A stretch of DNA of 64,000 nt from contig JAFSAU010000016.1 of assembly GCA_017442155.1 (NCBI GenBank), positions 99,723 through 163,722 on the forward strand. Direction: 5' to 3'. This DNA comes from Clostridia bacterium (GTDB lineage: Bacteria > Bacillota > Clostridia > UMGS1883 > UMGS1540). The notes under the pieces were generated by a model. It had not been told where the DNA came from. It saw only the letters and a list, made by a program, of their open reading frames with translations, and ran no database searches. Both the position numbers and the translations under genes were made by a program. This document shows positions 656-35,267 of this stretch, in pieces. The number at the start of each line of letters is the position of its first letter. The stretch's first letter is position 1.

Positions 656-3600
656 ATGACAATCAAAAACAATTTCTTACGGAAGGCGATTGCACTTCTG
701 ATACTACCGGCCCTTCTGGTGGGGCTGGTGCCCGCGGTCAATGCAAGTGAGCAATACCCACTGCCCGCTAAAAATGAGGAAAGTCTCGCAAGACTGTATG
801 CCAATCTTAAAAACGATATGGTCGGGTATGACTCGGAGATCATCAGACCGGGAACCAGCGAAGTGCATATGCAAGGTATTTGCGTTGATGATGCTTATAA
901 ATATTTGTATATATCGTATACAGAGGTTATAAACAAGGTGGACCTCGCAACCGGCGAAACTGTCGGCAGACTGGGCGGCTTTAAACTGACCGGTGGGAAG
1001 GGAAAACCCCATTTGGGCTGTATGGCGTATTATGATGGCCGTATTTACTGCTCCACCGGATACAAACAAGATGCTGTAAATAAATATTTTGTAATCGCCA
1101 TTGACGAAGATGCGTTTCCCATGGATGGCTCTTATAAAGATGTTGAACCTTTTCTGAATCCGGATCGTACGCAGGTGCCTGACGGTGAAAAAGATAACTA
1201 CCATGCCTTTTTCATGGCAGATGTTGTCGAAGGCAAAAGAAGTGGACTGTATCGTGCCGCGGGCATGGACGGTATTTGCTTTGGAGCATATCCGGGCGAT
1301 ACAAGCGGCGATACATATATGCTTGTATCTCAGAGCAGTGCAAGGGGACTTACGTATTATGATAACGATTATTGTGTTATCACCGCCTATAAGCTTGAAA
1401 ACTTTATAGGGGACACAAAGGTAGATATCCCCTTAACTACGGACAGAATAAAGAATACAGAATATACACAGGATGAGCGTTTGACCTCAGATAAACGGTT
1501 GTTTGTGCACACTGGTAACGTTTATGCGAGTGTTCAGAATATGGATTATGACAAGGACACAGGGGATTTGGTCCTTATTACCTATGAACCCACTAAAACC
1601 TGGAACCTGTATTTAAACGGTGTGTTGGGAAAAGAATCCAAGCCAAAGAAATACGTTATTGATGGAAGCAAAACCCCCGTGTATAAGACACTTGAGCTCG
1701 GACAAAGCAATAACGACAGGGACCCGGATGTAAAGCAGGCGGCAATTGACAGAGTAGAAAACTTCTATAAAGCAAACAACAACGGCGAGATTCCTAAGGG
1801 AGACCATGCCGTACTGAAATGTATATGCGGCCTGGGCAGTATGGACAACCATGAATGCATCAGTACCTATGTTGAATCCACCGGCGTAGATGCGGGACTT
1901 ACCGATTTAAAGCTTTGCTTCCGTGAAATTGACGATAGAGAAGATTATGGGCTTGCATCGTTGGGGGATGGATATTATTATGCAACCTGGGATTCCACGA
2001 AGGTCAGACTTTATAAGAGCAACGAAAACTATAAATTTACAAAGGTAAATCCGCCGGCACCTGAGCTGGAAGAATTGGTGCATCTAAAGATGAATGCCGA
2101 AGACCTGTATGTAGACGAAACCGGTACGCTTCGAATGAGAAATGCGCTGGACAATGGCTACGATGCCATCGTGCAAGGCACGTCAGCGGCGGAAGATCAG
2201 AACGATGTGGCGGGGAGTGCAACATATTTTAGCGGGTTCACGCATCCCACAAATCCGGACCGCATTTATCTGGACGAAGCTACCATGGATTACTTTAACC
2301 AGAAAACTAAAAAGAGGGGATATTCCTTCAGCTTCTGGGCAAAGATGGCCATGCCTAAAAATCGTGCAGGAAGAGCCATACCCGTTGCAGGTTTTTACAG
2401 AGAGGATAAAACCTATGGCGGTGTGTTCGAACTGCAGAAACGGCAAATCGTTGAATATAAAATAAACGGATTGGGTGAAGATACTGCCGGCAGCATTTCC
2501 AAGGACTACGGTCCGCCGATATACAGAACTTCAAAACAAACCGATGGAAAAATAGGAGATGATGCGTGGCATCACTTTGTTGTTACGGAACTGGATGGGT
2601 ATTCCTACATCTATTTAGACGGTGTTCCGGGACTTGTAAAGGATTCCACCAATACTGACACCACTGTTTTTAAATATGATCTCTATAAAGACAGGGCACA
2701 CATGAAAAACAAACCCTTTCAATACTTTGAAATCGGTGGAAGCCTTTATAACATTCATCAGGATTCAGAATTGCGCGGCAGACTGACAGGGGCAGTGGAC
2801 GATGTCAGAATTTTTGCAGGGATTTTGACGGCTGAGGATGTAGCGAATATGTATGCGGCAGGCGTTTCGGCGGCGAGTGATACAGAGGCTGCATATCCGG
2901 TCACAGCTACAGACGAAACAAACAGTGTTTTCACGCCGGCTTATCCCGTCTACAACAGAAGCACAGATGGAGGCGAAGAGCTGACGGTTACTGCCACAAA
3001 AGCAGTGCAGTCCGTCAGAGACCTTTTTGTTGGTACAGATTACACAGTAAGCGGCAATTCTATTACCTTTGCGAAGGAATATCTTGCAGGAAAAAGTCGA
3101 GGAATTCACGAGCTTTTGGTGACATTTGCGGATAACACAACGGAAACTTTGCACCTTACCGTCGTGGAGGATGGCGTGGCTGTTTTGGACTACAAGCTGA
3201 ATAGAGACAGTATAAGTGGCAAGACTGTTACCGACAGCAGTGCATACGGGGTGAATGCCGTATCCTCTGTCGCTCTAACGACATACGGGGAAAATCAGAA
3301 AGCGGAAAGTGACGGCGCGGTGTCTTTTGACGGCTTTGACTACGCAAACCCCCAGTACATCTATCTTGCAAAGGATAATGCACAGTGGCTGAATGCTGTT
3401 CTGAAGGATGGCTACACGGTAAACTTCTGGGCGAATGCCGGATTTGAAAACGGAAATAAAATGGCGCTTTTAGGTCTCTATAATCAAAGTGGACGTCCTT
3501 TGGGTGCTGTGGAGGAATATGATAAAGATTCAGCTACAAGCGGTACTGCTACCTTGATGAAGGATGGAAAAATGACCATACGTGCCGATGTCGGAAACGG

Positions 3601-4210
3601 ACGATACAGAGAGGAGAGTATCAATGCCACCGCTACCGAGCAGGTAAACACCAAGGAATGGGTAATGTACACCATGACCTTTGCAGACGGAAAACTTTCT
3701 CTTTATGTTTCGGCAAAGGATACAGTAAGAAAATGCTATACTAAAGAAGTGTCTGCAAATGTTCTCGGCGAAATAGCCCATTTCATTATTGGTGCAAATT
3801 ATAATCGGTATTATAAAGCGGATTCCTGGACGGATGACTACGAAGGGCGTGGGGGATTTTGTGGTTTGATGAGCGACGTTTCGGTATATCCGAATGCGAT
3901 GAATACAGCGGCCATTGAGAGACTATACCAGGGTGGCAGGGAGTTTATAATTATACCGACTGTATCCGGCACTAATACAGTCGACGTTGCGTTTTCCGCC
4001 GCACCGGAGGAAAAAGGCACTTTGCTTGTGGCTTTGTATGAAGAGAATCAGATGATTGCAATCAAAGTATTGCCCACCGACTGCGTTCATGCGACGTATA
4101 GAGTAGAACTTGATAAGGAGATTGGCTCCGGACAGCAAATAAAAGTGTTTGCACTCAAGGGCATCCGGACACTAAACCCCGGAAGCAACTGCGTGGTGAT
4201 TAATGTTTAA
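656..4210 (+). CDS. Large secreted protein (1184 aa) with two LamG/concanavalin-like lectin domains
   Basis: GGGAGG RBS followed by ATG. N-terminal signal peptide (KAIALLILPALLVGLVPAVNA). Two LamG_3-like segments (…DDVRIFAGILTAEDVANMYAAG…, …MSDVSVYPNAMNTAAIERLYQGG…). No catalytic motif recognised. Confidence 0.55.
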   Translation: MTIKNNFLRKAIALLILPALLVGLVPAVNASEQYPLPAKNEESLARLYANLKNDMVGYDSEIIRPGTSEVHMQGICVDDAYKYLYISYTEVINKVDLATGETVGRLGGFKLTGGKGKPHLGCMAYYDGRIYCSTGYKQDAVNKYFVIAIDEDAFPMDGSYKDVEPFLNPDRTQVPDGEKDNYHAFFMADVVEGKRSGLYRAAGMDGICFGAYPGDTSGDTYMLVSQSSARGLTYYDNDYCVITAYKLENFIGDTKVDIPLTTDRIKNTEYTQDERLTSDKRLFVHTGNVYASVQNMDYDKDTGDLVLITYEPTKTWNLYLNGVLGKESKPKKYVIDGSKTPVYKTLELGQSNNDRDPDVKQAAIDRVENFYKANNNGEIPKGDHAVLKCICGLGSMDNHECISTYVESTGVDAGLTDLKLCFREIDDREDYGLASLGDGYYYATWDSTKVRLYKSNENYKFTKVNPPAPELEELVHLKMNAEDLYVDETGTLRMRNALDNGYDAIVQGTSAAEDQNDVAGSATYFSGFTHPTNPDRIYLDEATMDYFNQKTKKRGYSFSFWAKMAMPKNRAGRAIPVAGFYREDKTYGGVFELQKRQIVEYKINGLGEDTAGSISKDYGPPIYRTSKQTDGKIGDDAWHHFVVTELDGYSYIYLDGVPGLVKDSTNTDTTVFKYDLYKDRAHMKNKPFQYFEIGGSLYNIHQDSELRGRLTGAVDDVRIFAGILTAEDVANMYAAGVSAASDTEAAYPVTATDETNSVFTPAYPVYNRSTDGGEELTVTATKAVQSVRDLFVGTDYTVSGNSITFAKEYLAGKSRGIHELLVTFADNTTETLHLTVVEDGVAVLDYKLNRDSISGKTVTDSSAYGVNAVSSVALTTYGENQKAESDGAVSFDGFDYANPQYIYLAKDNAQWLNAVLKDGYTVNFWANAGFENGNKMALLGLYNQSGRPLGAVEEYDKDSATSGTATLMKDGKMTIRADVGNGRYREESINATATEQVNTKEWVMYTMTFADGKLSLYVSAKDTVRKCYTKEVSANVLGEIAHFIIGANYNRYYKADSWTDDYEGRGGFCGLMSDVSVYPNAMNTAAIERLYQGGREFIIIPTVSGTNTVDVAFSAAPEEKGTLLVALYEENQMIAIKVLPTDCVHATYRVELDKEIGSGQQIKVFALKGIRTLNPGSNCVVINV

Positions 4211-5341: not shown

Positions 5342-7882
5342 ATGAAACGTTTGGTGATTGGCATATTGGCCCATGTAGATGCGGGAAAAACAACGCTTTC
5401 CGAGGGGCTTTTATATACGGCGGGAATAATCCGAAGCCTGGGGCGTGTGGACCACGGGAACGCTTTTCTGGACACCGATACCATCGAACGGAAGCGAGGC
5501 ATCACAATTTTTTCAAAACAGGCAATGCTGGAGACGGATGCGGTGTCTTTTACGCTCCTTGATACGCCGGGACACGTGGATTTTTCTGCGGAGATGGAAC
5601 GAAGCCTTCGGGTGTTGGATTATGCCATTTTGGTAGTCAGTGGCGCGGATGGTGTGCAAAGCCATACAGAAACGTTGTGGCGGATGCTGCGCCATTATGA
5701 TGTTCCCACCTTTATTTTTGTCAATAAAATGGATTTGCCTACAGATGGAGAAGAAAACCTATTGCAGTCCCTGGGACAGAAGCTGGATGGTGGTTGTGTT
5801 GCTTTTGGACAGGAGGACGATGCTTTTTTTGAAAATATCGCAATGCAAAGCAACACTCTTTTGGATGCGTATCTCTCTGTCGGTAAACTTTCTGTTGATT
5901 CCATTGCCGATGCGATTGCATCGCGGCAGATTTTCCCTGTTTACTTTGGTTCAGCACTGAAAAATACCGGCGTCCGGGCCTTATTTGAGGGCGTTTGTCG
6001 GTACACGCAAGAAAGAAAGTACTCTTCCGCTTTTGGAGCAAAGGTATTTAAAATTTCCGAGGATGAAAAAGGGCAGCGACTTGCTTATTTAAAGATTACA
6101 GGAGGCACTCTTCCTGTCAAAAGCACTTTGGAGGGAAAGGGTTGGAGTAGGAAAATAAATGAAATCCGCATTTACTCCGGGGATAAATATAAAAACGTTC
6201 AGGAGGCGGCAGCGGGGAGTGTTTGTGCAATCCCGGGAATTGAAAAAACCTTTCCCGGTGAAGGGCTTGGGACAGAGCGGGAGGATGAAGTGCTTCTTTC
6301 TGAGCCGGTACTAACCTATGGTGTTCTTCTGCCGGAAGGAACAGACGTCCTCGCGGCACTTTCTGTTTTCCGTAAACTGGAGGAAGAAGAAACACAGATG
6401 CATGTTCTATGGAATGAGCTTCTGGCAAAAATTGATATTCAGGTTATGGGCGAGGTGCAGCTTGAGGTTATAAAAGAAATTCTGGAAACACGATTTGGAC
6501 TTACTGTTCGTTTTACAAGTGGCAGTATTATATATAAAGAAACAATTCGGAATACGGTTGAAGGCGTGGGTCATTTTGAGCCTCTGCGGCATTATGCAGA
6601 GGTGCATGTCCTGCTGGAACCGGGAAAAAAGGGCGGCGTTGAAATTGTGTCAGCCTGTCCGGAGGATTCACTGTCAAAAAACTGGCAACGTCTTATCCTG
6701 ACCCATCTTGCAGAAAAGACACACCGTGGCGTTCTTACCGGTGCACCCATAACCGATATTAAAATTACATTGATTGCGGGTCGTGCCCATGTTAAACATA
6801 CCGAGGGCGGTGATTTTCGCCAGGCTACGTATCGTGCCGTGCGTCAAGGCTTGATGCAGGCGGAAAGCGTCCTGCTTGAACCATGGTATTCCTTCATGCT
6901 GGAGGTACCCCAGGAATCCGTCGGGCGGGCACTGACGGATTTGGAAAGAATGGGTGCACAGTTTTCTGCACCGGAGGTAGGAGAGGTGTCCTCGGTAATC
7001 CGGGGCAAAGCACCCATCTCCCGGATGCGGGAATATCATACGACTGTCCTTGCTTATTCTCGTGGGAAAGGGCGTCTGGCTTGTACTTTCTGCGGTTATG
7101 ATGCGTGTAAAGATGCTGAATCTGTCATTGCAGAAATCGGATACGACCCCGAGGCAGATCTTGCCAACACGCCGGATTCTGTATTTTGTTCTCATGGGGC
7201 AGGGGTACTGGTGAAGTGGGACGAGGTATTTGAGCACATGCATATTCCCACGATTGCAAAACAACAAGAGGAAGCACAAATCCCGGTTGCCGCGCCTCAA
7301 CACAGAAAAATGCTGGAGGATGATGCAACACTTCTTGCTATTTACGAGCGCACCTATGGAAAAATCAGACAGAAAGACCCCGGTCGGACTCTGCATACCC
7401 CCCGTCTGCAAAAGGAATATAAGGCAAAGTCGATTCCCATGGGTCCGACATATTTGCTTGTGGACGGTTATAATATCATTTTTGCATGGGAGGACCTTTC
7501 AAAAATCGCACAGGAAAGCCTGGAAACTGCCCGCTCTCTTCTTATAAGTCGGCTATGTAATTATTGTGCCATGCGGGATTTCCGGATCATTGTTGTGTTT
7601 GATGCATATCGCGTTCCCGGTGCTTTTCGCGAAATAGAAGAGGTTCATGGCATTAGTGTGGTATATACAAAAGAAGCTGAAACGGCAGATGCCTATATAG
7701 AAAAAACTTCAAAAGAGCTTGTTAAAAACTATCGTGTCCGTGTTGCTACGTCGGACCGTCTGGAGCAAATCATTGTGTTTGGACAGGGGATTCAAAGGGT
7801 TTCTGTCTCAGAATTTTTATCCGAGGTACGTGTCGCAGAAGGGGAAATGCGGACATTTATTGAGGAAAATAATGGAAAATGA
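5342..7882 (+). CDS. TetM/TetO/EF-G-like translational GTPase fused to a C-terminal YacP/Rae1-like NYN (PIN-like) ribonuclease domain
   Basis: N-terminus GILAHVDAGKTTLSEGLLY…DTPGHVDF…NKMD supplies the G1/G3/G4 motifs of trGTPases and is very close to the TetM N-terminus. C-terminal residues about 690-846 (LLVDGYNIIFAWEDL…IIVVFDAY…VATSD…) align with B. subtilis YacP/Rae1 (LLVDGYNMIGAW…VIVVFDAH…VATSD). Confidence 0.8.
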   Translation: MKRLVIGILAHVDAGKTTLSEGLLYTAGIIRSLGRVDHGNAFLDTDTIERKRGITIFSKQAMLETDAVSFTLLDTPGHVDFSAEMERSLRVLDYAILVVSGADGVQSHTETLWRMLRHYDVPTFIFVNKMDLPTDGEENLLQSLGQKLDGGCVAFGQEDDAFFENIAMQSNTLLDAYLSVGKLSVDSIADAIASRQIFPVYFGSALKNTGVRALFEGVCRYTQERKYSSAFGAKVFKISEDEKGQRLAYLKITGGTLPVKSTLEGKGWSRKINEIRIYSGDKYKNVQEAAAGSVCAIPGIEKTFPGEGLGTEREDEVLLSEPVLTYGVLLPEGTDVLAALSVFRKLEEEETQMHVLWNELLAKIDIQVMGEVQLEVIKEILETRFGLTVRFTSGSIIYKETIRNTVEGVGHFEPLRHYAEVHVLLEPGKKGGVEIVSACPEDSLSKNWQRLILTHLAEKTHRGVLTGAPITDIKITLIAGRAHVKHTEGGDFRQATYRAVRQGLMQAESVLLEPWYSFMLEVPQESVGRALTDLERMGAQFSAPEVGEVSSVIRGKAPISRMREYHTTVLAYSRGKGRLACTFCGYDACKDAESVIAEIGYDPEADLANTPDSVFCSHGAGVLVKWDEVFEHMHIPTIAKQQEEAQIPVAAPQHRKMLEDDATLLAIYERTYGKIRQKDPGRTLHTPRLQKEYKAKSIPMGPTYLLVDGYNIIFAWEDLSKIAQESLETARSLLISRLCNYCAMRDFRIIVVFDAYRVPGAFREIEEVHGISVVYTKEAETADAYIEKTSKELVKNYRVRVATSDRLEQIIVFGQGIQRVSVSEFLSEVRVAEGEMRTFIEENNGK

Positions 7883-7999: not shown

Positions 8000-8932
8000 A
8001 TGAAAACGGTATTTATTGACGGTAGTGCCGGCACTACGGGACTACGTATATATGAGCGTTTGGAGGGGCGGGAGGATATTCAACTTATCCGTCTTTCAGA
8101 GGAAGTACGAAAGGACGCGGCGGCTCGAAAGGAAGCAATAAACCGAGCTGACATCGTGTTCCTCTGTCTGCCGGATGCGGCGGCTGTTGAGGCGGTGTCC
8201 CTTTGTGAAAATTCCGAAACGGTGATTATTGACACCTCAACGGCACATCGCACAAATCCGGATTGGACCTACGGTTTTCCGGAACTTGGAAATAACCGTG
8301 AGAAAATCAGAACAGCCTCGCGGATTGCAAACCCCGGCTGTCATGCCAGCGGATTCATTGCTCTGATTCAGCCTCTTGTCAGCCATGGATTACTTTCTTC
8401 CGACGCGTTTCTGACCTGCTTTTCTCTGACCGGATATTCGGGCGGCGGCAAAAAGATGATAGCGGAATATGAAGGGGAAAAGCTTCCTGCGCTCTATAAA
8501 GCTCCCCGTCAGTATGGTCTTGCGCAAAACCATAAGCATCTGCCGGAAATGGCGGCGGTTTGCGGTCTGGTAAATGCTCCGGCTTTTTCGCCCATTGTGG
8601 CGGATTTCTATAGCGGTATGGAGGTTTCTGTTCCGCTTTTCGCTAAGTATATTTCAGGTAGCTTGGAGGACATTAAAGCGGTATACCGTGATGTATATAA
8701 GAAAGGACTTGTACAGTTTTGTGAAGAAACAGACGAGGGGGGATTTCTTTCTGCGGCGGCCTACGCCGGAAGGGATGATATGGAGGTCACCGTGATGGGC
8801 AATGCAGACAGAATTCTGCTCACGGCCCGGTTTGATAATTTAGGAAAAGGGGCTTCCGGCGCGGCAATACAGAATATGAACATTGTTATGGGAGTGCCCG
8901 AGGACACGGGTCTTACGGTGAAAGGAGAATAA
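8000..8932 (+). CDS. argC: N-acetyl-gamma-glutamyl-phosphate reductase (short form)
   Basis: 310 aa. N-terminal NAD-binding motif (IDGSAGTTG) and catalytic Cys in NPGCHA. First gene of a cluster of arg genes. Confidence 0.9.
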   Translation: MKTVFIDGSAGTTGLRIYERLEGREDIQLIRLSEEVRKDAAARKEAINRADIVFLCLPDAAAVEAVSLCENSETVIIDTSTAHRTNPDWTYGFPELGNNREKIRTASRIANPGCHASGFIALIQPLVSHGLLSSDAFLTCFSLTGYSGGGKKMIAEYEGEKLPALYKAPRQYGLAQNHKHLPEMAAVCGLVNAPAFSPIVADFYSGMEVSVPLFAKYISGSLEDIKAVYRDVYKKGLVQFCEETDEGGFLSAAAYAGRDDMEVTVMGNADRILLTARFDNLGKGASGAAIQNMNIVMGVPEDTGLTVKGE

Positions 8933-8935
8933 AAA

Positions 8936-10150
8936 ATGCAGATAATACAGGGCGGTGTTTGCGCCGCAAAAGGATTTAAAGCAGGGGGTGTACATTGCGG
9001 AATCCGGAAAAACAGAACAAAAAAGGACCTTGCACTGATTCTTAGTGAGGTTCCCTGCACGGCGGCGGCCGTTTATACCCAGAATCTTGTGAAGGGAGCT
9101 CCGCTCCTTGTAACGAAAGCCCATCTTACTGACGGAAAGGCCCAGGCTGTTATTTGCAACAGCGGAAACGCGAATACCTGTAATGCAGATGGCGTGGAAA
9201 TTGCAGAAAAAATGAGTGCAGCAGCGGCATCGTCACTCGGCATTTCTCCGGAAGATATGGTGGTGGCTTCCACCGGGGTTATCGGGCAGCCCTTGCCGCT
9301 GGATCCTATTGTTGAGGCGATTCCTTCTCTTGCTGCGTGTCTTTCGGAAGATGGAAGTGCTGACGCAGGTGAGGCAATTATGACAACAGATACCATCCTG
9401 AAGGAAATTGCCGTGGAATTTGAAATTGGCGGAAAACTCTGTCGGATGGGTGGGATTGCTAAGGGAAGCGGCATGATTCATCCGAACATGGCGACTATGC
9501 TCGTGTTTATTACGACTGACACAGCTATTTCCTCTGCAATGCTGCAGAAAGCACTTTCTTCTGACATTACAGAAACATTTAATATGCTTAGTATTGACGG
9601 AGACACTTCCACAAACGATATGGTTTCTGTTCTGGCAAACGGCATGGCCGGTAACATGGAAATTACAGAGGATGGCGAGGCTTTTTCCATCTTTATGAAA
9701 GCACTGAATACCGTAACTGTACATCTTTGTCGTTTGATTGCAGGGGATGGTGAGGGGGCCACGAAGCTTCTGGAATGCAAAACCACCGGTGCAATGGATA
9801 TGAAAACAGCCAAAACTGTTGCTAAAAGCGTAATATGTTCCAGTCTTCTCAAGGCGGCTATGTTCGGTGCTGACGCTAACTGGGGACGTGTGCTTTGTGC
9901 CATCGGCTACAGCGGCGCGGATGTTGACGTGACGAAGGTAGATGTGTCTTTCCGTTCTGAAAAGGGGGAGATTGCAGTTTGCAAAGATGGGTCTGGTGTG
10001 CCTTTTTCGGAAGAAAAGGCGAAGGAAATTCTTCTGGAAAAAGAAATTGAAATTCTTGTCTCTTTAGGGGACGGACCGTGTAGTTCTACGGCATGGGGTT
10101 GTGATCTTACATACGATTATGTAAAAATTAACGGCGATTACAGGACCTGA
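8936..10150 (+). CDS. argJ: Bifunctional glutamate N-acetyltransferase / amino-acid acetyltransferase
   Basis: 404 aa with the autoproteolytic ATML site (…PNMATMLVFITTD…). The start is 4 bp after the argC stop. Confidence 0.9.
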   Translation: MQIIQGGVCAAKGFKAGGVHCGIRKNRTKKDLALILSEVPCTAAAVYTQNLVKGAPLLVTKAHLTDGKAQAVICNSGNANTCNADGVEIAEKMSAAAASSLGISPEDMVVASTGVIGQPLPLDPIVEAIPSLAACLSEDGSADAGEAIMTTDTILKEIAVEFEIGGKLCRMGGIAKGSGMIHPNMATMLVFITTDTAISSAMLQKALSSDITETFNMLSIDGDTSTNDMVSVLANGMAGNMEITEDGEAFSIFMKALNTVTVHLCRLIAGDGEGATKLLECKTTGAMDMKTAKTVAKSVICSSLLKAAMFGADANWGRVLCAIGYSGADVDVTKVDVSFRSEKGEIAVCKDGSGVPFSEEKAKEILLEKEIEILVSLGDGPCSSTAWGCDLTYDYVKINGDYRT

Positions 10151-10173: not shown

Positions 10174-11040
10174 ATGGAACAGCATTTTTCAAACGCACAA
10201 CGGGCAGAGGTTCTGACACAGGCACTGCCTTACATACAAAAATATAATGGAAAAATCGTGGTCGTGAAATACGGCGGTAACGCTATGATTAACGAACACC
10301 TCAAGGAACAGGTCATGGAAGATATCGTGCTTCTTTCTCTTATTGGAGTAAAAGTTGTGCTTGTTCATGGCGGAGGACCCGAAATCAGTGAGACTATGAC
10401 GAGGCTGGGAAAGGAAGCAGTGTTTGTGGATGGTCTCCGCGTCACGGATAAGGAGACAATTGATATTGTACAGATGGTGCTGGCAGGAAAGGTAAACAAA
10501 AGTCTTGTAAACCTCCTGGAAATGAAGGGAGGTACTGCAATGGGTATTTCCGGTATTGACGGCCGTCTGATTGAAGCAAAAATCAAGAATGAAAAGCTTG
10601 GATTTGTAGGTACGATTACAGGTGTCAATATCGCGCCGGTAACAGATCTTCTGGAAAAAGGGTACATTCCTGTTGTCTCCACGGTGGGCTGTGATAAGGA
10701 GGGTAATACCTACAATATCAACGGTGATACGGCTGCGGCCTTTATTGCCGGTGCACTCGGTGCCGAGCGGCTTATTATGATGACAGACATTGCCGGCATT
10801 CTTAGAGATAAGGATGACGAGGATACCTTAATCCGTGAACTGACAATTGCGGAAGCAGAAACATTGAAGAGCGAGGGCGTTATTTCCGGCGGCATGATTC
10901 CGAAGGTTGACTGTTGCATTGAAGCTATCGACGAGGGTGTAAAAAATGTGACAATTATGGATGGCCGCGTACCCCATTCTATTCTGATGGAAATGCTGAC
11001 AGACGAAGGTGCAGGCACCATGGTACGGGGAGACAAATAA
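10174..11040 (+). CDS. argB: Acetylglutamate kinase
   Basis: AAK-family motifs VVKYGGNAM and VLVHGGGP. 288 aa. Confidence 0.9.
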   Translation: MEQHFSNAQRAEVLTQALPYIQKYNGKIVVVKYGGNAMINEHLKEQVMEDIVLLSLIGVKVVLVHGGGPEISETMTRLGKEAVFVDGLRVTDKETIDIVQMVLAGKVNKSLVNLLEMKGGTAMGISGIDGRLIEAKIKNEKLGFVGTITGVNIAPVTDLLEKGYIPVVSTVGCDKEGNTYNINGDTAAAFIAGALGAERLIMMTDIAGILRDKDDEDTLIRELTIAEAETLKSEGVISGGMIPKVDCCIEAIDEGVKNVTIMDGRVPHSILMEMLTDEGAGTMVRGDK

Positions 11041-11056: not shown

Positions 11057-12226
11057 TTGAACATTCAGGATATAGACAAAACCTTTGTTGCGGGCACATA
11101 TGCCCGCTTTCCCGTAGTACTTACCGAGGGCAAGGGATCCATAGTGTATGATGACACGGGAAAGGAATACATAGATTTAGGCACCGGTATTGCTGTAAAT
11201 ACGTTCGGAATTGCCGATACAGAGTGGGCAGATGCTGTCTCAGCACAGCTTACAAAGCTTCAGCATGTTTCAAATCTGTATTATACAGACCCCTGCGCGC
11301 TTCTTGCCAAGGCTCTCTGTGAAAGAACGGGATTTAAAAAAGTGTTTTTTGGGAATTCCGGGGCGGAGGCCAATGAGTGTGCAATTAAAGTGGCCAGAAA
11401 GTATGCCGCAGAAAAAAAGGGCGAGGACTATTATACGATTATTACGCTGCAGCAAAGCTTCCATGGCCGGACGCTTACCACACTGTCGGCCACGGGGCAG
11501 GACCATTTTCATAAGCTTTTTCAGCCGCTGACGCCAGGGTTTGTACACACACCGGCCAATGATTTTGAGACGTTGAAAAAAAACGTAAAGGAAAATAAAA
11601 CAGCGGCAGTTATGCTGGAGTGCGTTCAGGGCGAGGGCGGCGTGATGACGCTGGAGGATGACTTTGTAAAAAAGACAGCGGAACTTTGCAAAAAAGAGGA
11701 CGTGCTTCTTATTGTAGATGAAGTGCAGACAGGTAACGGACGGACAGGAAAGCTGTACGCCTATATGCACTTCGGTATTATGCCGGATATTATCACCACA
11801 GCAAAAGGTCTCGGAGGCGGTCTGCCGATTGGTGCAGCAATGCTGGGTGAAAAAGTAGAGAATGTTTTGGGCCCCGGCGATCATGGGTCCACCTTCGGCG
11901 GCAACCCTGCAGCCTGTGCGGGCGCACTGAATATTCTGTCCCGGATTGATGACGCACTTCTTGCCGGGGTGGAAGAAAAAAGTCGTTGGATTTTTGAAAT
12001 ACTGTCAGGTTCCGAGGGTGTGGAAGGTGTTTCGGGAAAAGGCCTGATGATTGGCATTAAAACGAAGAAGCCCGCCGCGGAAGTGGTTTCCGCTTGCCGG
12101 GAAAAAGGTGTTTTGTGCCTTACTGCAAAAGACAAGGTGCGGCTTCTGCCGGCCCTGAACATCCCGTTTGACATACTTAAAAAAGCGATTGGTATACTAC
12201 AGGAAGCCTGTAGGGAAGGAGCATAA
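11057..12226 (+). CDS. argD: Acetylornithine aminotransferase (class-III PLP aminotransferase)
   Basis: PLP-lysine context (…[12 protein letters not shown]…). TTG at 11057 after a GAAAGGAG RBS. The ORF-track start at 11009 would overlap argB. Confidence 0.85.
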
Positions 12227-12230
12227 CGCT

Positions 12231-13223
12231 ATGAATATAAATGATTTTAAAGGCAGAAGCTTTTTGAAGCTTCTCGACTTTTCTTCCGAAGAAATTCTAT
12301 TTTTGTTAAATCTCTCCCAAGAACTGAAAAGCAAAAAACAAAACGGTATTCCGCATAGAATGTGTGAAGGAAAAAACATTGCATTGGTTTTTGAAAAGAC
12401 AAGTACCCGTACCCGCTGCGCCTTTGAGGTAGCGGCGGCAGATTTGGGGATGCACCCGGTGTACCTTGATCCCTCTGGCTCCCAGATTGGGAAGAAGGAG
12501 AGCATTGCCGATACAGCCCGCGTTTTGGGTAGAATGTTTGATGGTATTGAATACAGGGGGTTCGGACAGGAAATTGTGGAAAAGCTGGCAGAATATGCCG
12601 GGGTTCCCGTATGGAATGGTCTTACAAATGAGTACCATCCCACGCAGATTTTAGCTGATTTTCTGACGATTCTTGAGCATTTTGGTGGCTTGCGCGGCAA
12701 AAAACTCGTCTATATGGGTGACGCACGCTATAATATGGGTAACTCGCTGATGGTGGGCTGTGCCAAAATGGGAATGCATTTTGTGGCCTGTGCACCAAAA
12801 GCGTATTTTCCTGCAGAAGAACTGATTCACACTTGCCAGGCAATTGCGGAGGAAACCGGTGCCACATTGGAATTCTGTGAAGATCCTATGGTAGCCACAA
12901 AGGATGCCGACGTAATCTATACTGACGTCTGGGTGTCCATGGGTGAGCCGGAATCGGTGTGGAAGGAGCGTATAGAGGCTCTTTCACCGTACAGCGTGAC
13001 GAAAAAAATTATGGAAAACGCCGGACCGCAGTGCCGATTTATGCATTGTTTACCAGCATTCCATGACCTGGATACTACCATAGGAAAGGAAATTTACGAA
13101 AAATTCGGTATCGGCCATATGGAGGTCTCAGATGAAGTGTTTGAGAGTGAACAGTCCATTGTTTTTGATGAAGCTGAAAACCGGATGCATACTATTAAAG
13201 CCGTTATGGCGGCTACACTCTGA
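12231..13223 (+). CDS. argF: Ornithine carbamoyltransferase
   Basis: Carbamoyl-phosphate binding STRTR motif and the HCLP motif. ATG at 12231 after GGAAGGAG. The ORF-track start at 12168 overlaps argD. Confidence 0.85.
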
Positions 13224-13234
13224 GGAGTAAAGTA

Positions 13235-14278
13235 ATGAAGAAAGCATATCTGATTTTAGAAAATAAAACAGTGCTGGAAGGAACGCGCATTGGTGCGGAA
13301 GGAGAGTCCTATGGAGAGCTGGTGTTCACCACGGGGGTTGTCGGTTATCTTGAAACACTGACAGATTCTGCCTTTGCAGGCCAGATTATACTGCAGTCCT
13401 TCCCACAGATAGGAAACTACGGTGTCATAGAGGAGGACCTTGAGGGACCCTGTCTTGCTGCAGGTTATGTGGTGCAGGACCTTTGTACATCTCCTTCAAA
13501 CTTTCGCGCAGAATATGACTTGAACACATACCTTAAAAAAGCAGGTGTTCCCGGCATTATGGGAATAGATACGCGAGCACTTGTGCGTCTTTTGGGACGG
13601 GAAGGAGCAATGAGAGCCTGCATTATGGATGCAGTTCCGGCCGATTTGGATTCTGTTTTTTCCAAGCCTTTACCCGCGACCTTGGCGGGATGTGCGGAAA
13701 AGAGGGTGATTCCGGCAAAGGGGATAAAAAAATACAATGTTTCCGTTTTAGATTTTGGGATATCGAAAAATATGCTTTCTGCACTCACAGAGAGGGGCTG
13801 TGAGGTGATGCTCTGGCCCAAAAACAGCACTGCGTCAGACATTCAGGCCGCAAAACCGGACGGGTTGCTGATTTCAGCAGGTCCCGGTGATCCGGAAGAT
13901 TACCCGGAGCAAACGGCCGAAATTAAAAAACTCATCGGTACGGTGCCAACCCTTGGTATCGGTCTCGGCCATCAGCTCTGCGCCCTTGCAATGGGTGGAA
14001 AAACAGAGAAGCTTTTCTGCGGGCACAGGGGTGCAAATCACCCGGTGAAAAGTGCAGACGGACGTGTTTATATTGTACAGCAGAATCACGGTTATACGGT
14101 GAAAAAAGAAAGCCTTCCTGGTGCAGGTGAACTTTTTATCAATTTGCATGACGGCACTAACGAGGGGCTTATATATCCGGAAAAAGGATGTTTTACGGTG
14201 CAGTTTTATCCTGTAGGACATACAGACTTTATCTGGGATGCTTTCATAAAAGAAATGGGAGGGAACGGCAATGCCTAA
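13235..14278 (+). CDS. carA: Carbamoyl-phosphate synthase small (glutaminase) subunit
   Basis: CPSase small-chain N-terminus plus a class-I glutamine amidotransferase domain (GIGLGHQL). Confidence 0.9.
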   Translation: MKKAYLILENKTVLEGTRIGAEGESYGELVFTTGVVGYLETLTDSAFAGQIILQSFPQIGNYGVIEEDLEGPCLAAGYVVQDLCTSPSNFRAEYDLNTYLKKAGVPGIMGIDTRALVRLLGREGAMRACIMDAVPADLDSVFSKPLPATLAGCAEKRVIPAKGIKKYNVSVLDFGISKNMLSALTERGCEVMLWPKNSTASDIQAAKPDGLLISAGPGDPEDYPEQTAEIKKLIGTVPTLGIGLGHQLCALAMGGKTEKLFCGHRGANHPVKSADGRVYIVQQNHGYTVKKESLPGAGELFINLHDGTNEGLIYPEKGCFTVQFYPVGHTDFIWDAFIKEMGGNGNA

Positions 14279-17200
14279 AGATAAATCCATTCAGAAGGTA
14301 CTGGTTATCGGTTCCGGTCCTATTGTTATTGGCCAGGCAGCAGAATTCGACTATGCAGGTGCGCAGGCTTGCCGTGTACTTCGGAGCGAGGGTATCAATG
14401 TTGTATTGGTAAATTCCAATCCTGCAACGATTATGACAGATAAAAATCTTGCAGATGAAATATATCTGGAGCCGCTTAATGCAGATACGGTGCGTCGCAT
14501 CATTGAAAAAGAACAGCCGGACGGCCTTCTGGCAGGCCTCGGTGGGCAGACGGGACTGACAATCGCCATGCAGCTGACTCGTGACGGCACTCTTGCAAAA
14601 AATGGGGTACGTTTGCTCGGTACTGATATCGATGCAATTGAGAAGGCGGAGGACAGGGAGCTGTTCCGGAATGCCATGCAGGAAATTGGACAGCCTGTAG
14701 TTCCGTCTGAAATTGCCACAACGGTCGAGGAAGCTTTGTCCGCGGCTGTGGGCATCGGTTATCCCGTTATTGTTCGTCCGGCCTTTACGCTGGGCGGAAG
14801 CGGCGGCGGTATTGCGGGTGATGAATCCGATTTACGGACAATTGCCAAAACGGGTCTTGATATGTCGCCCATTACCCAGGTGCTTATTGAAAAATGTATT
14901 TCCGGCTGGAAGGAAATTGAGTTTGAAACCATGCGCGATAGCGCGGGGAACGCTATTGCTGTCTGTTCTATGGAAAATGTGGACCCGGTGGGGATCCACA
15001 CCGGCGATTCCATTGTTGTTGCCCCTGCACTCACGCTTTCGCCTAAAGAATATACGATGCTTCATGATGCGGCACTGGATATGGTGGCCAAAATTGGCAT
15101 TGTGGGCGGCTGTAACTGTCAGTTTGCATTAAATCCGGATAGCTTTGAATATGCGGTGATTGAGGTAAATCCACGTGTTTCCCGTTCTTCAGCACTCGCT
15201 TCCAAGGCAACCGGATATCCGATTGCTAAAATCACAACCAAAATTGCCCTTGGATACACACTTGATGAAATTCAAAATGATATCACCGGCAGTACATCGG
15301 CTTGCTTTGAACCGACTGTGGATTATGTGGTGGTTAAGTTCCCTAAATGGCCCTTTGAAAAATTTGCCACGGCCAGTCGGGTACTTGGTACGCAGATGAA
15401 AGCCACGGGTGAGGTGATGGCGATTGCCCCTTCCTTTGAAGCTGCACTTATGAAGGCTGTGCGCGGAGCAGAAATTTCACTGGACACGCTGGATGCTAAA
15501 CCAATTTCAGATCTTTCACTTATGGAACGGCTTGCCGTAGCGGACGATCGCCGCATTTTCACGGTGTTTGAAGCAATTAAAAAAGGTGTTACCGTTGACG
15601 AAATTTTTGCAATTACAAAAATTGACCGGTGGTTTCTCAACAAAATAAAAAACCTTGCAGAGTTTGAAACAGAAATTAAAAACGGACTTTCGGACGAAAA
15701 GTATTGTCTCGGTAAAAAACTTGGGTATACGGATGCCGCACTGTCCCGTATATCCGGCCGCACGGATTTGCCGGAAGGCACTCTGTGCTATAAGAAGGTA
15801 GATACTTGTGCCGGAGAATATGAGGCAGTAAAGCCCTATTTTTATTCTGATTTTGGTGGAGAATGTGAAGCCAGAGGTTTTGTCCGCTCCGGCAAGCCGG
15901 TTATTATGGTGTTAGGTTCCGGACCGATTCGCATTGGTCAGGGAATTGAATTTGATTATAGTAGTGTGCATAGCGTATGGACACTGCAGAAAATGGGATA
16001 CGATGTGGTTATTGTCAATAATAATCCGGAGACAGTTTCCACGGACTATGATACGGCTGACCGCCTTTATTTCGAGCCGCTTTCGCCGGAAGATGTTATG
16101 CACATCATAAATATTGAAAAGCCCATCGGCGTCGTGGTGGCGTTCGGGGGACAGACGGCAATAAAGCTTACTAATTTTTTAGATAACGCCGGGATTCCCA
16201 TTTTAGGGACGTCTGCTGATGGAATTGACATGGCCGAAGACCGCGAGCGTTTCGATGCGTTACTTGAAAAATTTGGCATCCGCCGTCCGCGAGGTCTCGG
16301 GGTTCGCACGATGGAAGAAGCCTTAGAGGCGGCAAAATCCCTTGGATATCCGGTTTTGCTCCGTCCGTCGTACGTGATTGGCGGTCAGAACATGACGATT
16401 TCACGCGGCGATGAACAGACACGCCGGTATATGAAAGCAATTCTGTCCACGGGTATTGAAAATCCCGTGCTGGTTGATAAATATATGCCTGGGACAGAAC
16501 TTGAGGTTGACGTTATTTCTGACGGTGAGGACGTACTGATTCCCGGTATAATGGAGCATATAGAGCGCGCAGGCGTACATAGCGGTGATTCCATTGCGGT
16601 ATACCCGCCCTATAACCTCAGCGATAAATTGCTCGATAAAATCTGCCGTTCTGCAGAAAAACTGGCACTTGCACTGGGAACAAAAGGACTTGTCAATATT
16701 CAGTATTTAGTTTACCAGAATGAGCTGTATGTCATTGAGGTGAATCCCCGTGCTTCGCGCACAGTGCCTTATATCAGTAAGGTGACAAATGTGCCGATGG
16801 TGGACCTGGCCTCCAGGGTTATGCTTGGTGAAAAGCTGGCGGACCTTGGCTACGGAACGGGACTTTATCGAACACCGCCTTATTTTGCGGTTAAGGTACC
16901 GGTTTTTTCTTTTGAGAAGCTACACGATGCAAACTCTATGCTCAGTCCGGAAATGAAATCCACAGGAGAAGTGCTTGGTATTGGTAAAACTATGCCCGAA
17001 GCTTTGTTTAAAGGTCTTTCTGCCGCAGGTTTTGCGTTCCCGGACGAAAACGAGCGAGGCAGGACCGGTGTTCTTATCAGTGTGGAGGAAAGCGACTACG
17101 AGGAAAGTATTTCTCTTGCAAAGCGTTTCCACGACCTGGGAATTCATATTTATGCTACCACCGGCACTGCAGCGGCAATCCGCACATTAGGTATAGACGT

Positions 17201-18290
17201 TAAAGATGTGGAAAAAGAAAAAATTGAAGAACTGATGGAGGGTGGAAGTCTTTCGTATATTATTTATACCGGGGCGGTTAAAGACGGAACGGTTGGGGAC
17301 TATATTGCACTTCACAAACGGGCTATGCAGCTTGGTGTACCATGCCTTACCTCACTGGATACGGCCGGCGCACTGGCCGACATTATTGAAGGTCGTTTCA
17401 ATGGTGCAAATACGGAACTTGTGGATATCAATGCTATGCGTCCCTGGCGGAGGAAGATTCGTTTTGCAAAGATGCATTCTGCCGGAAATGATTATATTTT
17501 CATTGAGAATTTTGATGGAGGAATCACTTGCCCTGAGTCCCTTTGTGTCAGTCTCTGTGCACCACATTACGGTATCGGCGGCGATGGAATTGTACTGATT
17601 GAACGATCTTCTGTTGCAGATGCTAAAATGCGAATTTTCAACCGTGACGGCAGCGAAGGACGGATGGCAGGAAACAGCATCCGTTGTGTTGGTAAATATC
17701 TTTATGACAAAGGGTATGTTCGCAGTGAGTTTATTTCTGTGGAAACCTCCGGAAGCGTTAACCTTCTTCGGCTGTATCTTCGCGACGGTAAGGTCAGCAC
17801 GGTAACCGTGGATATGGGACGTGCCGACCTGAAAGCAGCGTCTATTCCGGCTTTAGTAAATGCAGAAACGTTGATAAATTATCCGCTGTCCGTTGGGGGT
17901 GACACCCATCGTGTAACCTGTGTTTCGCTGGGGAATCCACACTGTGTGCTGTTTTGTGACAGTATTGACGCCATCGATACGGCGGCGATCGGTCCGGCTT
18001 TTGAATATGCCGACGTATTTCCGGAGCGCGTGAATACAGAATTTGTTCGGGTTGTAAACAAAACGACACTTCGTATGCGTGTGTGGGAGAGAGGAAACGG
18101 CGAAACTCTTTCCTGCGGCACAGGGGCTTGTGCGGCGGTGGTGGCTGCTGTGGAAAATGGTTTTTGCGAAAAAAATACGGATGTGGTTGTAAAACTTCGT
18201 GGAGGGGATCTTGTGGTTAATTACAGCGATGAGCGTATTCTTCTCACTGGAAGTGCTGTCATGGTCTTTGAAGGTGAATTTGAATACTAA
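14271..18290 (+). CDS. carB: Carbamoyl-phosphate synthase large subunit (to about 17435) fused in frame to a diaminopimelate epimerase (DapF) domain (about 17436-18290)
   Basis: Two ATP-grasp halves and an MGS-like domain account for about 1055 aa. There is no stop codon before KMHSAGNDYIF…GIGGDG…NRDGSEGRMAGNSIRC…CGTGACAA, which is a full DapF fold. The first catalytic Cys of DapF (xCGNG) is replaced by Ala (MAGNS); the second (CGTGACA) is retained. Confidence 0.8.
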   Translation: MPKDKSIQKVLVIGSGPIVIGQAAEFDYAGAQACRVLRSEGINVVLVNSNPATIMTDKNLADEIYLEPLNADTVRRIIEKEQPDGLLAGLGGQTGLTIAMQLTRDGTLAKNGVRLLGTDIDAIEKAEDRELFRNAMQEIGQPVVPSEIATTVEEALSAAVGIGYPVIVRPAFTLGGSGGGIAGDESDLRTIAKTGLDMSPITQVLIEKCISGWKEIEFETMRDSAGNAIAVCSMENVDPVGIHTGDSIVVAPALTLSPKEYTMLHDAALDMVAKIGIVGGCNCQFALNPDSFEYAVIEVNPRVSRSSALASKATGYPIAKITTKIALGYTLDEIQNDITGSTSACFEPTVDYVVVKFPKWPFEKFATASRVLGTQMKATGEVMAIAPSFEAALMKAVRGAEISLDTLDAKPISDLSLMERLAVADDRRIFTVFEAIKKGVTVDEIFAITKIDRWFLNKIKNLAEFETEIKNGLSDEKYCLGKKLGYTDAALSRISGRTDLPEGTLCYKKVDTCAGEYEAVKPYFYSDFGGECEARGFVRSGKPVIMVLGSGPIRIGQGIEFDYSSVHSVWTLQKMGYDVVIVNNNPETVSTDYDTADRLYFEPLSPEDVMHIINIEKPIGVVVAFGGQTAIKLTNFLDNAGIPILGTSADGIDMAEDRERFDALLEKFGIRRPRGLGVRTMEEALEAAKSLGYPVLLRPSYVIGGQNMTISRGDEQTRRYMKAILSTGIENPVLVDKYMPGTELEVDVISDGEDVLIPGIMEHIERAGVHSGDSIAVYPPYNLSDKLLDKICRSAEKLALALGTKGLVNIQYLVYQNELYVIEVNPRASRTVPYISKVTNVPMVDLASRVMLGEKLADLGYGTGLYRTPPYFAVKVPVFSFEKLHDANSMLSPEMKSTGEVLGIGKTMPEALFKGLSAAGFAFPDENERGRTGVLISVEESDYEESISLAKRFHDLGIHIYATTGTAAAIRTLGIDVKDVEKEKIEELMEGGSLSYIIYTGAVKDGTVGDYIALHKRAMQLGVPCLTSLDTAGALADIIEGRFNGANTELVDINAMRPWRRKIRFAKMHSAGNDYIFIENFDGGITCPESLCVSLCAPHYGIGGDGIVLIERSSVADAKMRIFNRDGSEGRMAGNSIRCVGKYLYDKGYVRSEFISVETSGSVNLLRLYLRDGKVSTVTVDMGRADLKAASIPALVNAETLINYPLSVGGDTHRVTCVSLGNPHCVLFCDSIDAIDTAAIGPAFEYADVFPERVNTEFVRVVNKTTLRMRVWERGNGETLSCGTGACAAVVAAVENGFCEKNTDVVVKLRGGDLVVNYSDERILLTGSAVMVFEGEFEY

Positions 18291-32066: not shown

Positions 32067-32123
32067 AACGATTTTGTTTTCGAGAAGCGGATTATATTGG
32101 CTCAGAAAGAAAGGAAAGACAAA

Positions 32124-35100: not shown

Positions 35101-35267
35101 TCTTTGCAGATGCAGCAGAAATTGCGGAATATGCGGCGCAGGATGTAGCGGCTATGGTGAAGGCCGGCGTTGTGACAGGATATGAGGATGGATCAATCCG
35201 TCCTCTCGGAAACACGACCCGCGCTGAAGCGGCTGTCATCATGAGCCGGATCCTCTCCTGGGGTTAA
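32124..35267 (+). CDS. Secreted multidomain protein: N-terminal CBM_4_9-like modules, a putative glycoside-hydrolase-like catalytic region, and three C-terminal SLH domains
   Basis: Signal peptide, then CBM-like repeats (GGSYVFSAYVFV…GAYNGAEVLFDAVSIIGPE). Central region carries WMNMDEPF and VFTTEQGS motifs. Three SLH repeats at the C-terminus. ATG at 32124 after GAAAGGAAAG. Confidence 0.6.
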   Translation: MKKRLLCLGLVFCLMISGMTLSVSALEQKKEFIVNGSFEEIKSDGKTIKNWSVLNERNDYVSVENQAKDGEYSAKLVCLEESGNTRIIQKVENLKPGGSYVFSAYVFVLNNKGFPFVKIEIGGQNNNKLEVQSKRWVKKEIKFTVPETSNSGHIYLGAYNGAEVLFDAVSIIGPEAGENDVPKKEEQTTVTTPTDTGTKEVTLDTIENRTPPTGTVESVSSPDFIEGRENILQNGDFENDENHIGPWHWGAYKTGWEENQKTLYVKNFGHNSQRSVQITNGEAGDLPYIRQQVELHSGGSYQVSMWIFSHAPEIMGSGQDCPIVFKLEFYSAEPSTDSYLGEQTVRVSGGTGGKWMQVVHDFNAPPGTKVAQVYVRLYGKVDTFWVDDVFLCNTEVPDGISVTSDQVFYYSDHTAPGVATAEINADVFPELVGSPIDFRLTKDGTVLAEEKGVPTIDGKASFTYDIGLLTEKQSEYRIEASAGEHMNFWRIYKYDRPIYLGADGVFRKNGDEIRPIAAYNYVKKHWGYGLADAEINVAILGIPTALEGEELIASMRASLDAAKEAGVYCLIATYTNMLPGGHEANRATTELLAKNLHDHPALFGWMNMDEPFLHDSNPHDDLRNTYIAVRNNDPYHPVFTTEQGSLRDSGKYVDIFGVDPYPGDTRDPLSYPASMISNAVAAVDGTRPVYGVLQTFNWKKYWPSENDMRNMIYQNFLAGGAGLGYYKFTNASGDGKDLDETDLWPTLSYFAQNEAEDVYNAFVFDKYPIFSDTKNDNYWAVSFVKEGILHMVILNRKSENQAVSLPLTSISGSHSIGAFTAVCAHGGNGETVSGDGTLSVTLEPGAAVVYKITPANGNDVAGVPITRFHDLTGYGWAYDQILSLDEKGIVNSVSEHRFDPAEKITRGEFAAFLVKTLQSFGITADATKSTFTDVLDGAHYADEIAVGEALGILKGVGNGMYLPQAEISRQDLMVISARGMRLVKELAAGDGAVFADAAEIAEYAAQDVAAMVKAGVVTGYEDGSIRPLGNTTRAEAAVIMSRILSWG

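Follow-up and report, generated by a model that had tools for sequence, protein, structure and literature searches.

A carbamoyl-phosphate synthase large subunit from Clostridia fused in frame to a DapF-like domain with alanine in place of the first catalytic cysteine

The DNA stretch analyzed here, 64,000 nucleotides of a Clostridia bacterium (GenBank assembly GCA_017442155.1, contig JAFSAU010000016.1, forward-strand positions 99,723 to 163,722; hereafter the window), contains an open reading frame (ORF) at 14271..18290 on the plus strand in which carB, the gene of the large subunit of carbamoyl-phosphate synthase (CPSase), runs into a sequence resembling dapF, the gene of diaminopimelate (DAP) epimerase. 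The ORF has 1339 codons plus a stop and zero internal stops, and its predicted product of ~147 kDa includes the stretch VDINAMRPWRRKIR. As judged from profile scores and the alignment with Escherichia coli CarB, the CarB part occupies residues 1-1057 (14271..17441, +) and runs to its natural C-terminus, LVDINAMR. The ORF scored 1401.7 bits against the CarB profile NF003671 over residues 1-1040 (cutoff 599) and 1371 bits against TIGR01369 (cutoff 1027), and the Pfam domains of this half (two ATP-grasp halves, the oligomerization domain and the MGS-like allosteric domain) follow in the expected order, which places it fully within the CarB family. The DapF-like domain, residues 1063-1339 (17457..18287, +), was delimited with TIGR00652, the Bacillus anthracis DapF structure 2otn and a structural model. 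It scored 265-270 bits against TIGR00652 (cutoff 114.65) over residues 1063-1337, covering profile positions 1-268 of 270, and matched PF01678 with E = 1.7e-54 and 183 bits (threshold 34.7) and 2otn with E = 2.4e-67. The DapF landmarks KMHSAGNDYIF, GIGGDG, NRDGSE, GNPH and CGTGACAA were all located in the ORF. An earlier note, made from the letters of this stretch alone, had proposed that a full carB runs without a stop into a complete DapF domain, and the 1339-codon ORF with its two full-length profile matches bears this out.

To describe the catalytic residues, the numbering of Haemophilus influenzae DapF is used for positions such as Cys73 and Cys217. In phmmer alignments to five solved DapFs (B. 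anthracis 2otn, Anabaena 9mro, Arabidopsis 3ejx, Pseudomonas aeruginosa 8qzy and H. influenzae 2q9h), Ala1133 of the window protein (codon GCA, 17667..17669, +) fell on the first catalytic cysteine, Cys73, which is the L-centre base, with mAGNS facing sCGNG or mCGNG. In the same alignments Cys1282 (18114..18116, +) fell on the second catalytic cysteine, Cys217, of the D-centre (CGTG). The loss of the first cysteine and the retention of the second, as read in the earlier note, thus hold against solved structures. Among the features of the DapF family, the fold, the distal-site residues N64, N157, N190 and R209, E208 and Cys217 are present in the window domain and Cys73 is absent; the fold and the ligand pocket are kept under selection while one essential catalytic residue is gone, as in a pseudo-enzyme. 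Its sequence and fold make the domain a DapF, in a derived variant, and it is not filed as a diaminopimelate epimerase because the defining first catalytic cysteine is missing.

The identical 1339-aa protein (NCBI MBQ7032888.1) is recorded from three sources, on four contigs of 50-200 kb, under the title 'MAG: carbamoyl-phosphate synthase large subunit [Clostridia bacterium]', where MAG stands for metagenome-assembled genome. The public names of the fusion protein are carbamoyl-phosphate synthase large subunit or 'diaminopimelate epimerase, partial'. Relatives were sought in one genome per GTDB species, which gave more than 600 pattern matches and at least 522 confirmed relatives covering the CarB tail and the DapF domain. 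The fusion is therefore present in at least 522 GTDB species genomes, belonging to uncultured Oscillospiraceae and other Clostridia of gut and rumen, and is the rule in a large clade, not an oddity of one genome. Of the confirmed relatives, 80 loci were retrieved for inspection. A complete in-frame ORF of 1336-1347 aa was found in ~50 of them; the others end at contig ends, and a few have lesions in carB. The identical protein in independent assemblies and the ~50 open frames exclude a stop or frameshift at the junction, which the earlier note had named as a possible refutation. Its view that a sequencing error cannot explain the alanine stands as well, in the light of the independent assemblies, the many loci and a codon difference that had to be corrected from two bases to three, as GCA differs from TGY at every position.

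The two parts of the protein join end to end. Only ~5 basic residues, PWRRK (residues 1058-1062; 17442..17456, +), lie between the natural end of CarB and the first DapF strand (KIRFAKMH). The computed alignment of E. coli CarB to the window protein ends at E. coli residue 1049; beyond it, within the last 24 residues of the E. coli protein, LVDINAMR (residues 1050-1057) would correspond to VISVQEMH (1062-1069). Met1056 (ATG at 17436) is thus presumably a residue of the C-terminal motif of CarB. No Shine-Dalgarno-like match of at least 5 bases was found 5′ of Met1056 in any of 88 loci, in comparison with 40 of 44 loci before the carB start. Because this site is absent in the 88 loci, we conclude that the DapF-like domain is made as part of CarB. 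The earlier note had seen no convincing internal ribosome-binding site, which the comparison confirms; the methionine before the domain, as part of the CarB motif, is presumably not an old dapF start. An internal start at Met1056 releasing a free DapF was accordingly ruled out, the methionine itself lying in the CarB motif. Stable fission into two genes, as the 284-aa database entries P0015, P0078 and P0024 might indicate, was ruled out too: these entries trace to runs of N or to frame breaks upstream, the frame is continuous across the carB/dapF junction in the scaffolds behind them, and the P0024 cluster also holds a 1343-aa member. An AlphaFold2 model of residues 900-1339, built from 54 sequences, had a mean pLDDT (per-residue confidence) of 87.9, a two-domain pTM (predicted template-modeling score) of 0.83 and linker pLDDT values of 60-76. 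Its DapF part superposed on the closed, inhibitor-bound Anabaena DapF 9mro with a TM-score of 0.91 and a root-mean-square deviation of 1.9 Å. The top Foldseek matches of the model were all DapF, and the distant fold neighbors included 6R76 and 4K7G, with 3-hydroxyproline dehydratases among them.

DapF works with a thiolate/thiol pair placed on opposite faces of the alpha-carbon. As read from its sequence, the window protein would be without the L-centre base, and the canonical two-base mechanism could not operate in it. In Corynebacterium glutamicum DapF, the mutations C83A (the Cys73 equivalent) and C221A each removed the activity almost wholly (PMC5296763), and the E. coli DapF C73A/C217A double mutant was inactive (PMC6061791). 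In Anabaena DapF, LL-aziDAP alkylated the Cys73 equivalent, Cys75, which makes contact with the alpha-amine alongside Asn13 (PMC12039745). Because engineered Cys-to-Ala mutants of DapF are nearly inactive, canonical two-base epimerization by the domain is unlikely, in agreement with the earlier note, which had doubted that the domain is a canonical two-base epimerase.

Position 73 was then compared in 195 homologous domains at 55-82% identity. Ala stands there in 191 and Gly in four, with no Cys, Ser or Thr in any, and 194 of the domains retain Cys217. In the codons of 88 loci all four alanine codons are used at position 73 (GCG 47, GCC 24, GCA 10, GCT 3, with GGC in 4), and Cys217 is encoded by TGC in 83 and TGT in 5. 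N64, G74, N75, N157, H159, N190, E208, R209, C217, G218 and T219 are each at least 97% conserved, that is, 11 of 12 pocket residues, while 69 of the 279 columns (25%) reach this level; N11 is Asn in 165 homologues and Asp in 28. The ratio of DapF to CarB divergence was 1.48 in 946 Ala-Ala pairs vs 2.0 in the single available Cys-Cys pair, and there appears from these sequences to be no sign of relaxed constraint on the DapF part. These results show that Ala (rarely Gly) at position 73 is held by purifying selection and that the Cys-to-Ala change is maintained. For the lineages with a broken carB, the nearest relatives share 67-77% DNA identity, at which the synonymous rate (dS) in a dN/dS comparison of CarB and DapF parts is saturated or distorted. 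Replacement acid/base residues were sought among the conserved residues, including positions 9 and 76, and none was found. Position 9 is C in 141 members of the clade, T in 25, S in 17, A in 4 and L in 2, and in the window it is Ala1071 (codon GCC, 17481..17483, +; by alignment). The cysteine that most relatives have there (KMHSCGNDY) was considered as a relocated base and rejected, as canonical clostridial Cys73 DapFs carry C, A, L, T or I at this position and the window protein has Ala. Position 76 varies among Asn, Ser, Ala and Cys.

The main Ala clade has residues of its own, F23, E25, N26, C33, C38, E57 and R206 (domain numbering, to which 1054 is added to give the residue of the window protein), which occur neither in Cys-type fusions nor in canonical DapFs. 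All of these except R206 would lie, according to the fold topology, at the bottom of the N-domain barrel, adjoining the N-terminus and CarB. Two of them are the new clade cysteines C33 (86%) and C38 (91%), which stand beside the ancestral C42 in helix alpha1 (17529-17558, residues 1087-1096, CPESLCVSLC); the resulting C-x4-C-x3-C pattern is found in the Ala73 clade and not in canonical DapFs or Cys73 fusions.

To reconstruct the order of events, a homologue search was made with one representative per 50%-identity cluster of ~15 billion proteins, and the 150 best representatives were compared. CarB-DapF fusions that keep Cys73 were found among them: P0127 (1349 aa, NCBI MGI6497870.1), P0283 (1351 aa), P0125 and P0124. 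P0127 is 60% identical to the window protein over its full length and likewise comes from Oscillospiraceae-labelled MAGs. The Cys73 fusions share the junction length and pattern of the Ala type (...NTELVDIN-MR-5 aa-F-KM...). Because the Cys73 and Ala73 fusions have the same junction, one ancestral fusion preceded the loss of Cys73, and the alanine is the derived state. The order was taken from this shared junction and not from the neighbor-joining tree, in which the Ala/Gly types are nearly monophyletic and the deep resolution is poor. Among the 150 representatives, Ala or Gly at position 73 is confined to CarB-fused proteins or their fragments. P0151, a deep fused lineage as far from the Ala clade as from the Cys-type fusions, probably lost its cysteine independently, to judge from its sequence, because the other Ala-clade residues are absent there. 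Other DapF fusions in public data, all with Cys73, are P0238 (with a ~400-aa N-terminus resembling class I/II aminotransferases), P0237 (with a GNAT-like acetyltransferase), P0195 (with a 400-aa N-terminal region that is unknown) and P0190 (with a degenerate CarB-like half).

Analysis of the gene context explained how carB and dapF could come together. P0283 lies in the order gltB..glnA-ANTAR-purF-carA-carB::dapF-guaA-pyrG, and the closest unfused canonical DapF among the representatives (P0129/P0284, 52% identity) lies in gltB..glnA-ANTAR-dapF-pyrG-nadE-aminotransferase; none of the 80 fusion loci has a contig accession with the record prefix of the latter, CALWPT01. In a sister lineage, purF-carA-carB stands directly upstream of the dapF position in the nitrogen-assimilation operon. 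In this group dapF is thus a gene of a nitrogen-assimilation operon, and gene adjacency accounts for the fusion: loss of the stop codon in an ancestor joined carB to the dapF directly downstream. The domain in the fusion appears to be orthologous to the ordinary dapF and not an extra copy. The earlier note had called the fusion unexpected, CPSase and DAP epimerase sharing no pathway, and this was half right, as the unfused orthologue sits in a nitrogen-assimilation operon and carAB adjoins dapF in the sister lineage. In two loci (L085:1-17484 and L096:1-14402), a canonical or Cys73-type dapF lies within a large nitrogen-assimilation operon rich in glutamine amidotransferases, with split glutamate synthase genes, glnA, an ANTAR regulator, purF, carAB, guaA, pyrG and nadE, which is an unusual home for dapF. 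A class I/II aminotransferase encoded in this operon might be DapL.

The CarB side of the fusion also differs between the two types. Residues 943, 999 and 1001 of the window CarB (17097-17099, 17265-17267 and 17271-17273) are Tyr, Tyr and Gly at the places of E. coli K954, N1015 and T1017, and the equivalents of T974, T977, K993 and T1042 are kept. In the Ala-type proteins the K954 site is Y in 36 of 44, the N1015 site Y in 43 of 44 and the T1017 site G in 44 of 44; the Cys-type fusions keep K at the first and have S at the other two. S948, T974, T977 and the ornithine-site residue T1042 are conserved in both types. In E. coli CarB, K954, T974, T977, K993, N1015 and T1017 are positions of the UMP/IMP (uridine and inosine monophosphate) effector pocket, and the sequences suggest that this pocket may have been lost or repurposed in the Ala73 clade. 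Roles of T977, K993, S948 and T1042 in the effector sites of E. coli CarB have been reported (PMC6245113). A further change on the CPSase side was observed in five species closely related to each other, L003, L007, L013, L024 and L025 (e.g., L025:6643-11167; 71-75% identity), in which CarA is cut to its N-terminal ~135-143 residues by deletion of the glutaminase domain, and what is left continues in frame into CarB-DapF(Ala73) as one ORF of ~1503-1532 aa. By its domain content this CarA'-CarB-DapF protein is probably an ammonia-dependent CPSase.

In the window, the fusion gene is the last of an operon argC-argJ-argB-argD-argF-carA-carB::dapF, all on the plus strand. It begins with argC (8000..8932; TIGR01851, 345.5 bits), followed by argJ (8936..10150; TIGR00120, 476.9 bits), argB (10174..11040; TIGR00761, 265.4 bits), argD of the acetylornithine aminotransferase family (11057..12226; TIGR00707, 439.6 bits) and argF, encoding ornithine carbamoyltransferase (12231..13223; TIGR00658, 421.4 bits); the starts of the last two were taken from the gene calls of locus L081. 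The gene carA, for the small (glutaminase) subunit of CPSase (13235..14278; NF009475, 336.9 bits), overlaps the carB start by 8 nt. This order recurs in most relatives with enough sequence, and the adjoining position of carA and carB is likewise conserved. Some Ala-type relatives have gltB-gltD-pyrG-carA-carB::dapF instead (L041, with pyrG in the same place in L065). Across the relatives, no conserved genes were found downstream of the fusion. No second dapF was found in the 64-kb window or within 10 kb of the fusion in the 80 relatives, and in L041 a separate dapF at the old operon position is absent.

Several known systems resemble the fused domain in part. Canonical DapF (EC 5.1.1.7; B. anthracis 2OTN, Anabaena 9MRO, H. 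influenzae 1GQZ) has the same two-domain fold at 38-43% identity and the same N11, N64, G74-N75, N157, H159, N190, E208-R209, G218-T219 and Cys217, but it is a free protein of ~280 aa with Cys73, whereas the window domain is the C-terminal part of CarB, with Ala at 73 and clade-specific N-domain residues. The Cys73 fusions agree with the window protein in architecture and junction and differ in their MCGN motif, in keeping K954 and in being without the Ala-clade residue set; they lie in carA-carB::dapF or in the gltB..pyrG order described for P0283, not in an arg operon. The nearest solved relative outside DapF is the O-ureido-serine racemase DcsC (7VDY; E = 3.2e-38), a DapF fold whose pocket was retunable to a ureido substrate. 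Both cysteines are present in DcsC and its distal-site residues are altered, whereas the window domain has an unaltered distal site and one cysteine missing. In arylmalonate decarboxylase (Gly74/Cys188) and trans-3-hydroxy-L-proline dehydratase (Cys/Thr), one thiol of a two-thiol racemase fold is replaced. The same logic applies here, one cysteine being replaced and the pocket kept, but these are different families, in which membership is not claimed, and they act on compounds with a leaving group or a second carboxylate, whereas DAP has neither. In the literature searched, neither a CarB-DapF fusion nor a naturally occurring DapF without Cys73 was found described.

All three outcomes that the earlier note had listed for the domain, a pseudo-enzyme, a regulatory appendage or an enzyme with altered chemistry, are still live; only decay to a relic is contradicted. 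Our best guess, which is held tentatively, is that the domain is a DAP-binding, non-epimerizing module coupled to the allosteric domain of CPSase. It would still close on its ligand, LL-DAP, meso-DAP or a very near analogue, without the two-base proton swap; its open or closed state would be passed via the very short linker to the adjoining CarB allosteric domain, and the CPSase of the arginine/nitrogen-assimilation operon is predicted to be tuned or stabilized as a result. This reading is favored because the cysteine was lost only in the fused context, probably twice, because the loss coincides with new junction-side residues and a remodelled nucleotide-effector pocket, because the linker is almost nil, and because replacement by Ala or Gly, never Ser, looks like removal of chemistry. 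The two-domain pTM and the finding of neither an internal ribosome-binding site nor a stable two-gene split also speak for it. It is favored as well by precedent: ammonia-dependent carbamoyl-phosphate synthetase I carries a catalytically dead glutaminase-like domain (Cys to Ser), likewise a pseudo-enzyme fused to a CPSase but a different domain. Moreover, E. coli DapF activates RppH non-catalytically (PMC6061791, PMC4227774), acting by protein contacts, but on a different partner and while still a full epimerase. Other observations weigh against a DAP-binding module. The near-invariant Cys217 and the strict Ala/Gly at position 73 seem tighter than pure ligand binding needs and point towards chemistry. 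The domain looks like the descendant of an apparent housekeeping dapF, with no second copy in the regions searched; as the sole DapF it could not be without activity, unless ddh or a lysine/LL-DAP lifestyle provides a way around it. A physiological reason for DAP control of carbamoyl phosphate is not established, and the interface and coupling, taken from topology and pTM only, are those of a model. Furthermore, several lineages with a broken CarB keep the DapF part open and in frame. P0122 (L087:10001-11539) is a 512-aa chimera of ArgF residues 1-128, CarB residues ~960-1054 and a Gly73 DapF-like domain, in which a deletion took the remainder of argF together with carA and most of carB, while the DapF part is still read in frame from the start of argF; the chimera adjoins a dcw cluster (mraZ-rsmH-PBP-murE-mraY-ftsW, PBP being a penicillin-binding protein) whose MurE has the DAP-type motif DNPR. 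No diverged homologues of the P0122 architecture were found, and it is confined to one 90% cluster. P0301 (L090:6489-8657) is a CarA(1-213)-CarB(835-)-DapF chimera known from a single scaffold; its N-run lies outside the ORF, so that a scaffold-gap artefact is not supported and the deletion may be real. L091 (5697-9725) has two in-frame TAG codons in carB, at a conserved Ser and a conserved Glu, and its resulting 574-aa ORF occurs also in a second assembly; L093 (5307-9350) has one, at a conserved Lys; and L031 and L070 have frameshifts in carB with the DapF part open. Recoding of TAG in L091 and L093 was considered and judged unlikely, as the stops align to the differing residues S, E and K. 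These cases, few and undatable, hint at a role independent of CPSase activity.

The persistence of the DapF part after disruption of CarB suits another explanation, possible if doubtful, that the domain is still the epimerase of the cell, fused through its neighborhood, with a non-canonical proton donor on the L face, such as a water trapped in the Ala/Gly cavity. The rate may be deliberately low, which could suit a cell with an LL-DAP wall that needs only a trickle of meso-DAP for lysine. Orthology with the canonical unfused dapF (ANTAR-dapF-pyrG-nadE) and with the Cys73 fusions, judged from the place in the operon, argues for this, as do the lack of another dapF nearby, including at the old position in L041, the full DAP pocket with invariant His159, Glu208 and Cys217 under unrelaxed constraint, and the DAP-type MurE beside the P0122 chimera. 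An LL-DAP wall has been reported for Christensenella minuta (PMC7937921), and the label Christensenella sp. is attached to one locus in the clade. Set against these points, the equivalent engineered change nearly abolishes activity (PMC5296763), and selection for residual activity would favor Ser or Thr, which the 195 homologues never show. No conserved acid/base compensates for the loss, since position 9 varies as in canonical enzymes and position 76 varies as well. Moreover, to our knowledge, other LL-DAP organisms keep a canonical DapF. The strict pairing of Cys217 with Ala/Gly at 73 across hundreds of species, and again the persistence of the domain without intact CarB, would fit a neofunctionalized one-base enzyme, in which Cys1282 alone, by analogy with single-thiol enzymes, might carry out a stereospecific single-proton step on DAP or an isostere, for example a beta-elimination or a stereoselective, irreversible protonation. 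The 3-hydroxyproline dehydratases among the structural neighbors point the same way, and single-cysteine DapF mutants reportedly catalyze elimination of hydrogen fluoride from 3-fluoro-DAP (Koo, Vederas and Blanchard). We regard this enzyme as unlikely: the distal and proximal DAP-recognition residues are unchanged, so that the substrate must be DAP, which has no leaving group, or a near-isostere; no accessory genes accompany the domain and nothing downstream is conserved; and a candidate substrate in arginine/nitrogen metabolism is not known. That the domain is a functionless relic, dead since DapF became dispensable and tolerated at the end of CarB or kept as an aid to folding or oligomerization, is very improbable. 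One catalytic residue has been lost, and persistence alone is weak evidence for function when one nonsense mutation would remove the domain, but 11 of 12 pocket residues are at the 97% level against 25% of the columns, Cys217 stands in all homologues but one, synonymous codons turn over at Ala73 and Cys217, the relative rate is not raised, and the domain is never truncated in ~50 full-length loci. An artefact, be it a stop or frameshift overlooked between two separate genes, carB and dapF, or a cysteine codon called wrongly, has practically no probability left. The 284-aa 'stand-alone' versions in databases (P0015, P0078) would speak for it, but they trace to N-runs and upstream frame breaks with a continuous junction frame, and it is already refuted by the identical protein in independent assemblies, the ~50 independent genomes with the same open frame and the three changes between GCA and TGY. 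The feature is thus a selected variant, neither an error nor a decaying relic.

Some further genes of the window were recorded. Just upstream of the arg operon, 5342-7882 (+) encodes an 846-aa EF-G/Tet(M)-like translational GTPase with an extra C-terminal NYN_YacP nuclease-like domain, which reached 394 bits with the tet_protect model and fell short of its cutoff, 775. Large plus-strand ORFs lie at 656-4210 (1184 aa, without an NCBIfam match), 39376-41829 (817 aa, without a Pfam match) and 48532-54354 (1940 aa), and SLH/CBM_4_9 surface proteins are encoded near them, at 32097-38385.

The fusion bears on the annotation of this group, as metabolic reconstructions of many uncultured Clostridia abundant in gut and rumen will count DapF as present, and their predictions for lysine and peptidoglycan may be wrong. 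Racemases independent of pyridoxal phosphate are defined by an opposed pair of thiols. For their enzymology, a one-thiol DapF with an untouched pocket across hundreds of species is a natural experiment that might bring to light a proton donor of another kind, a new one-base reaction or a sensor of DAP. Should the domain sense DAP, a previously unknown regulatory link would lead from a cell-wall and lysine precursor to the supply of carbamoyl phosphate for arginine and pyrimidines.

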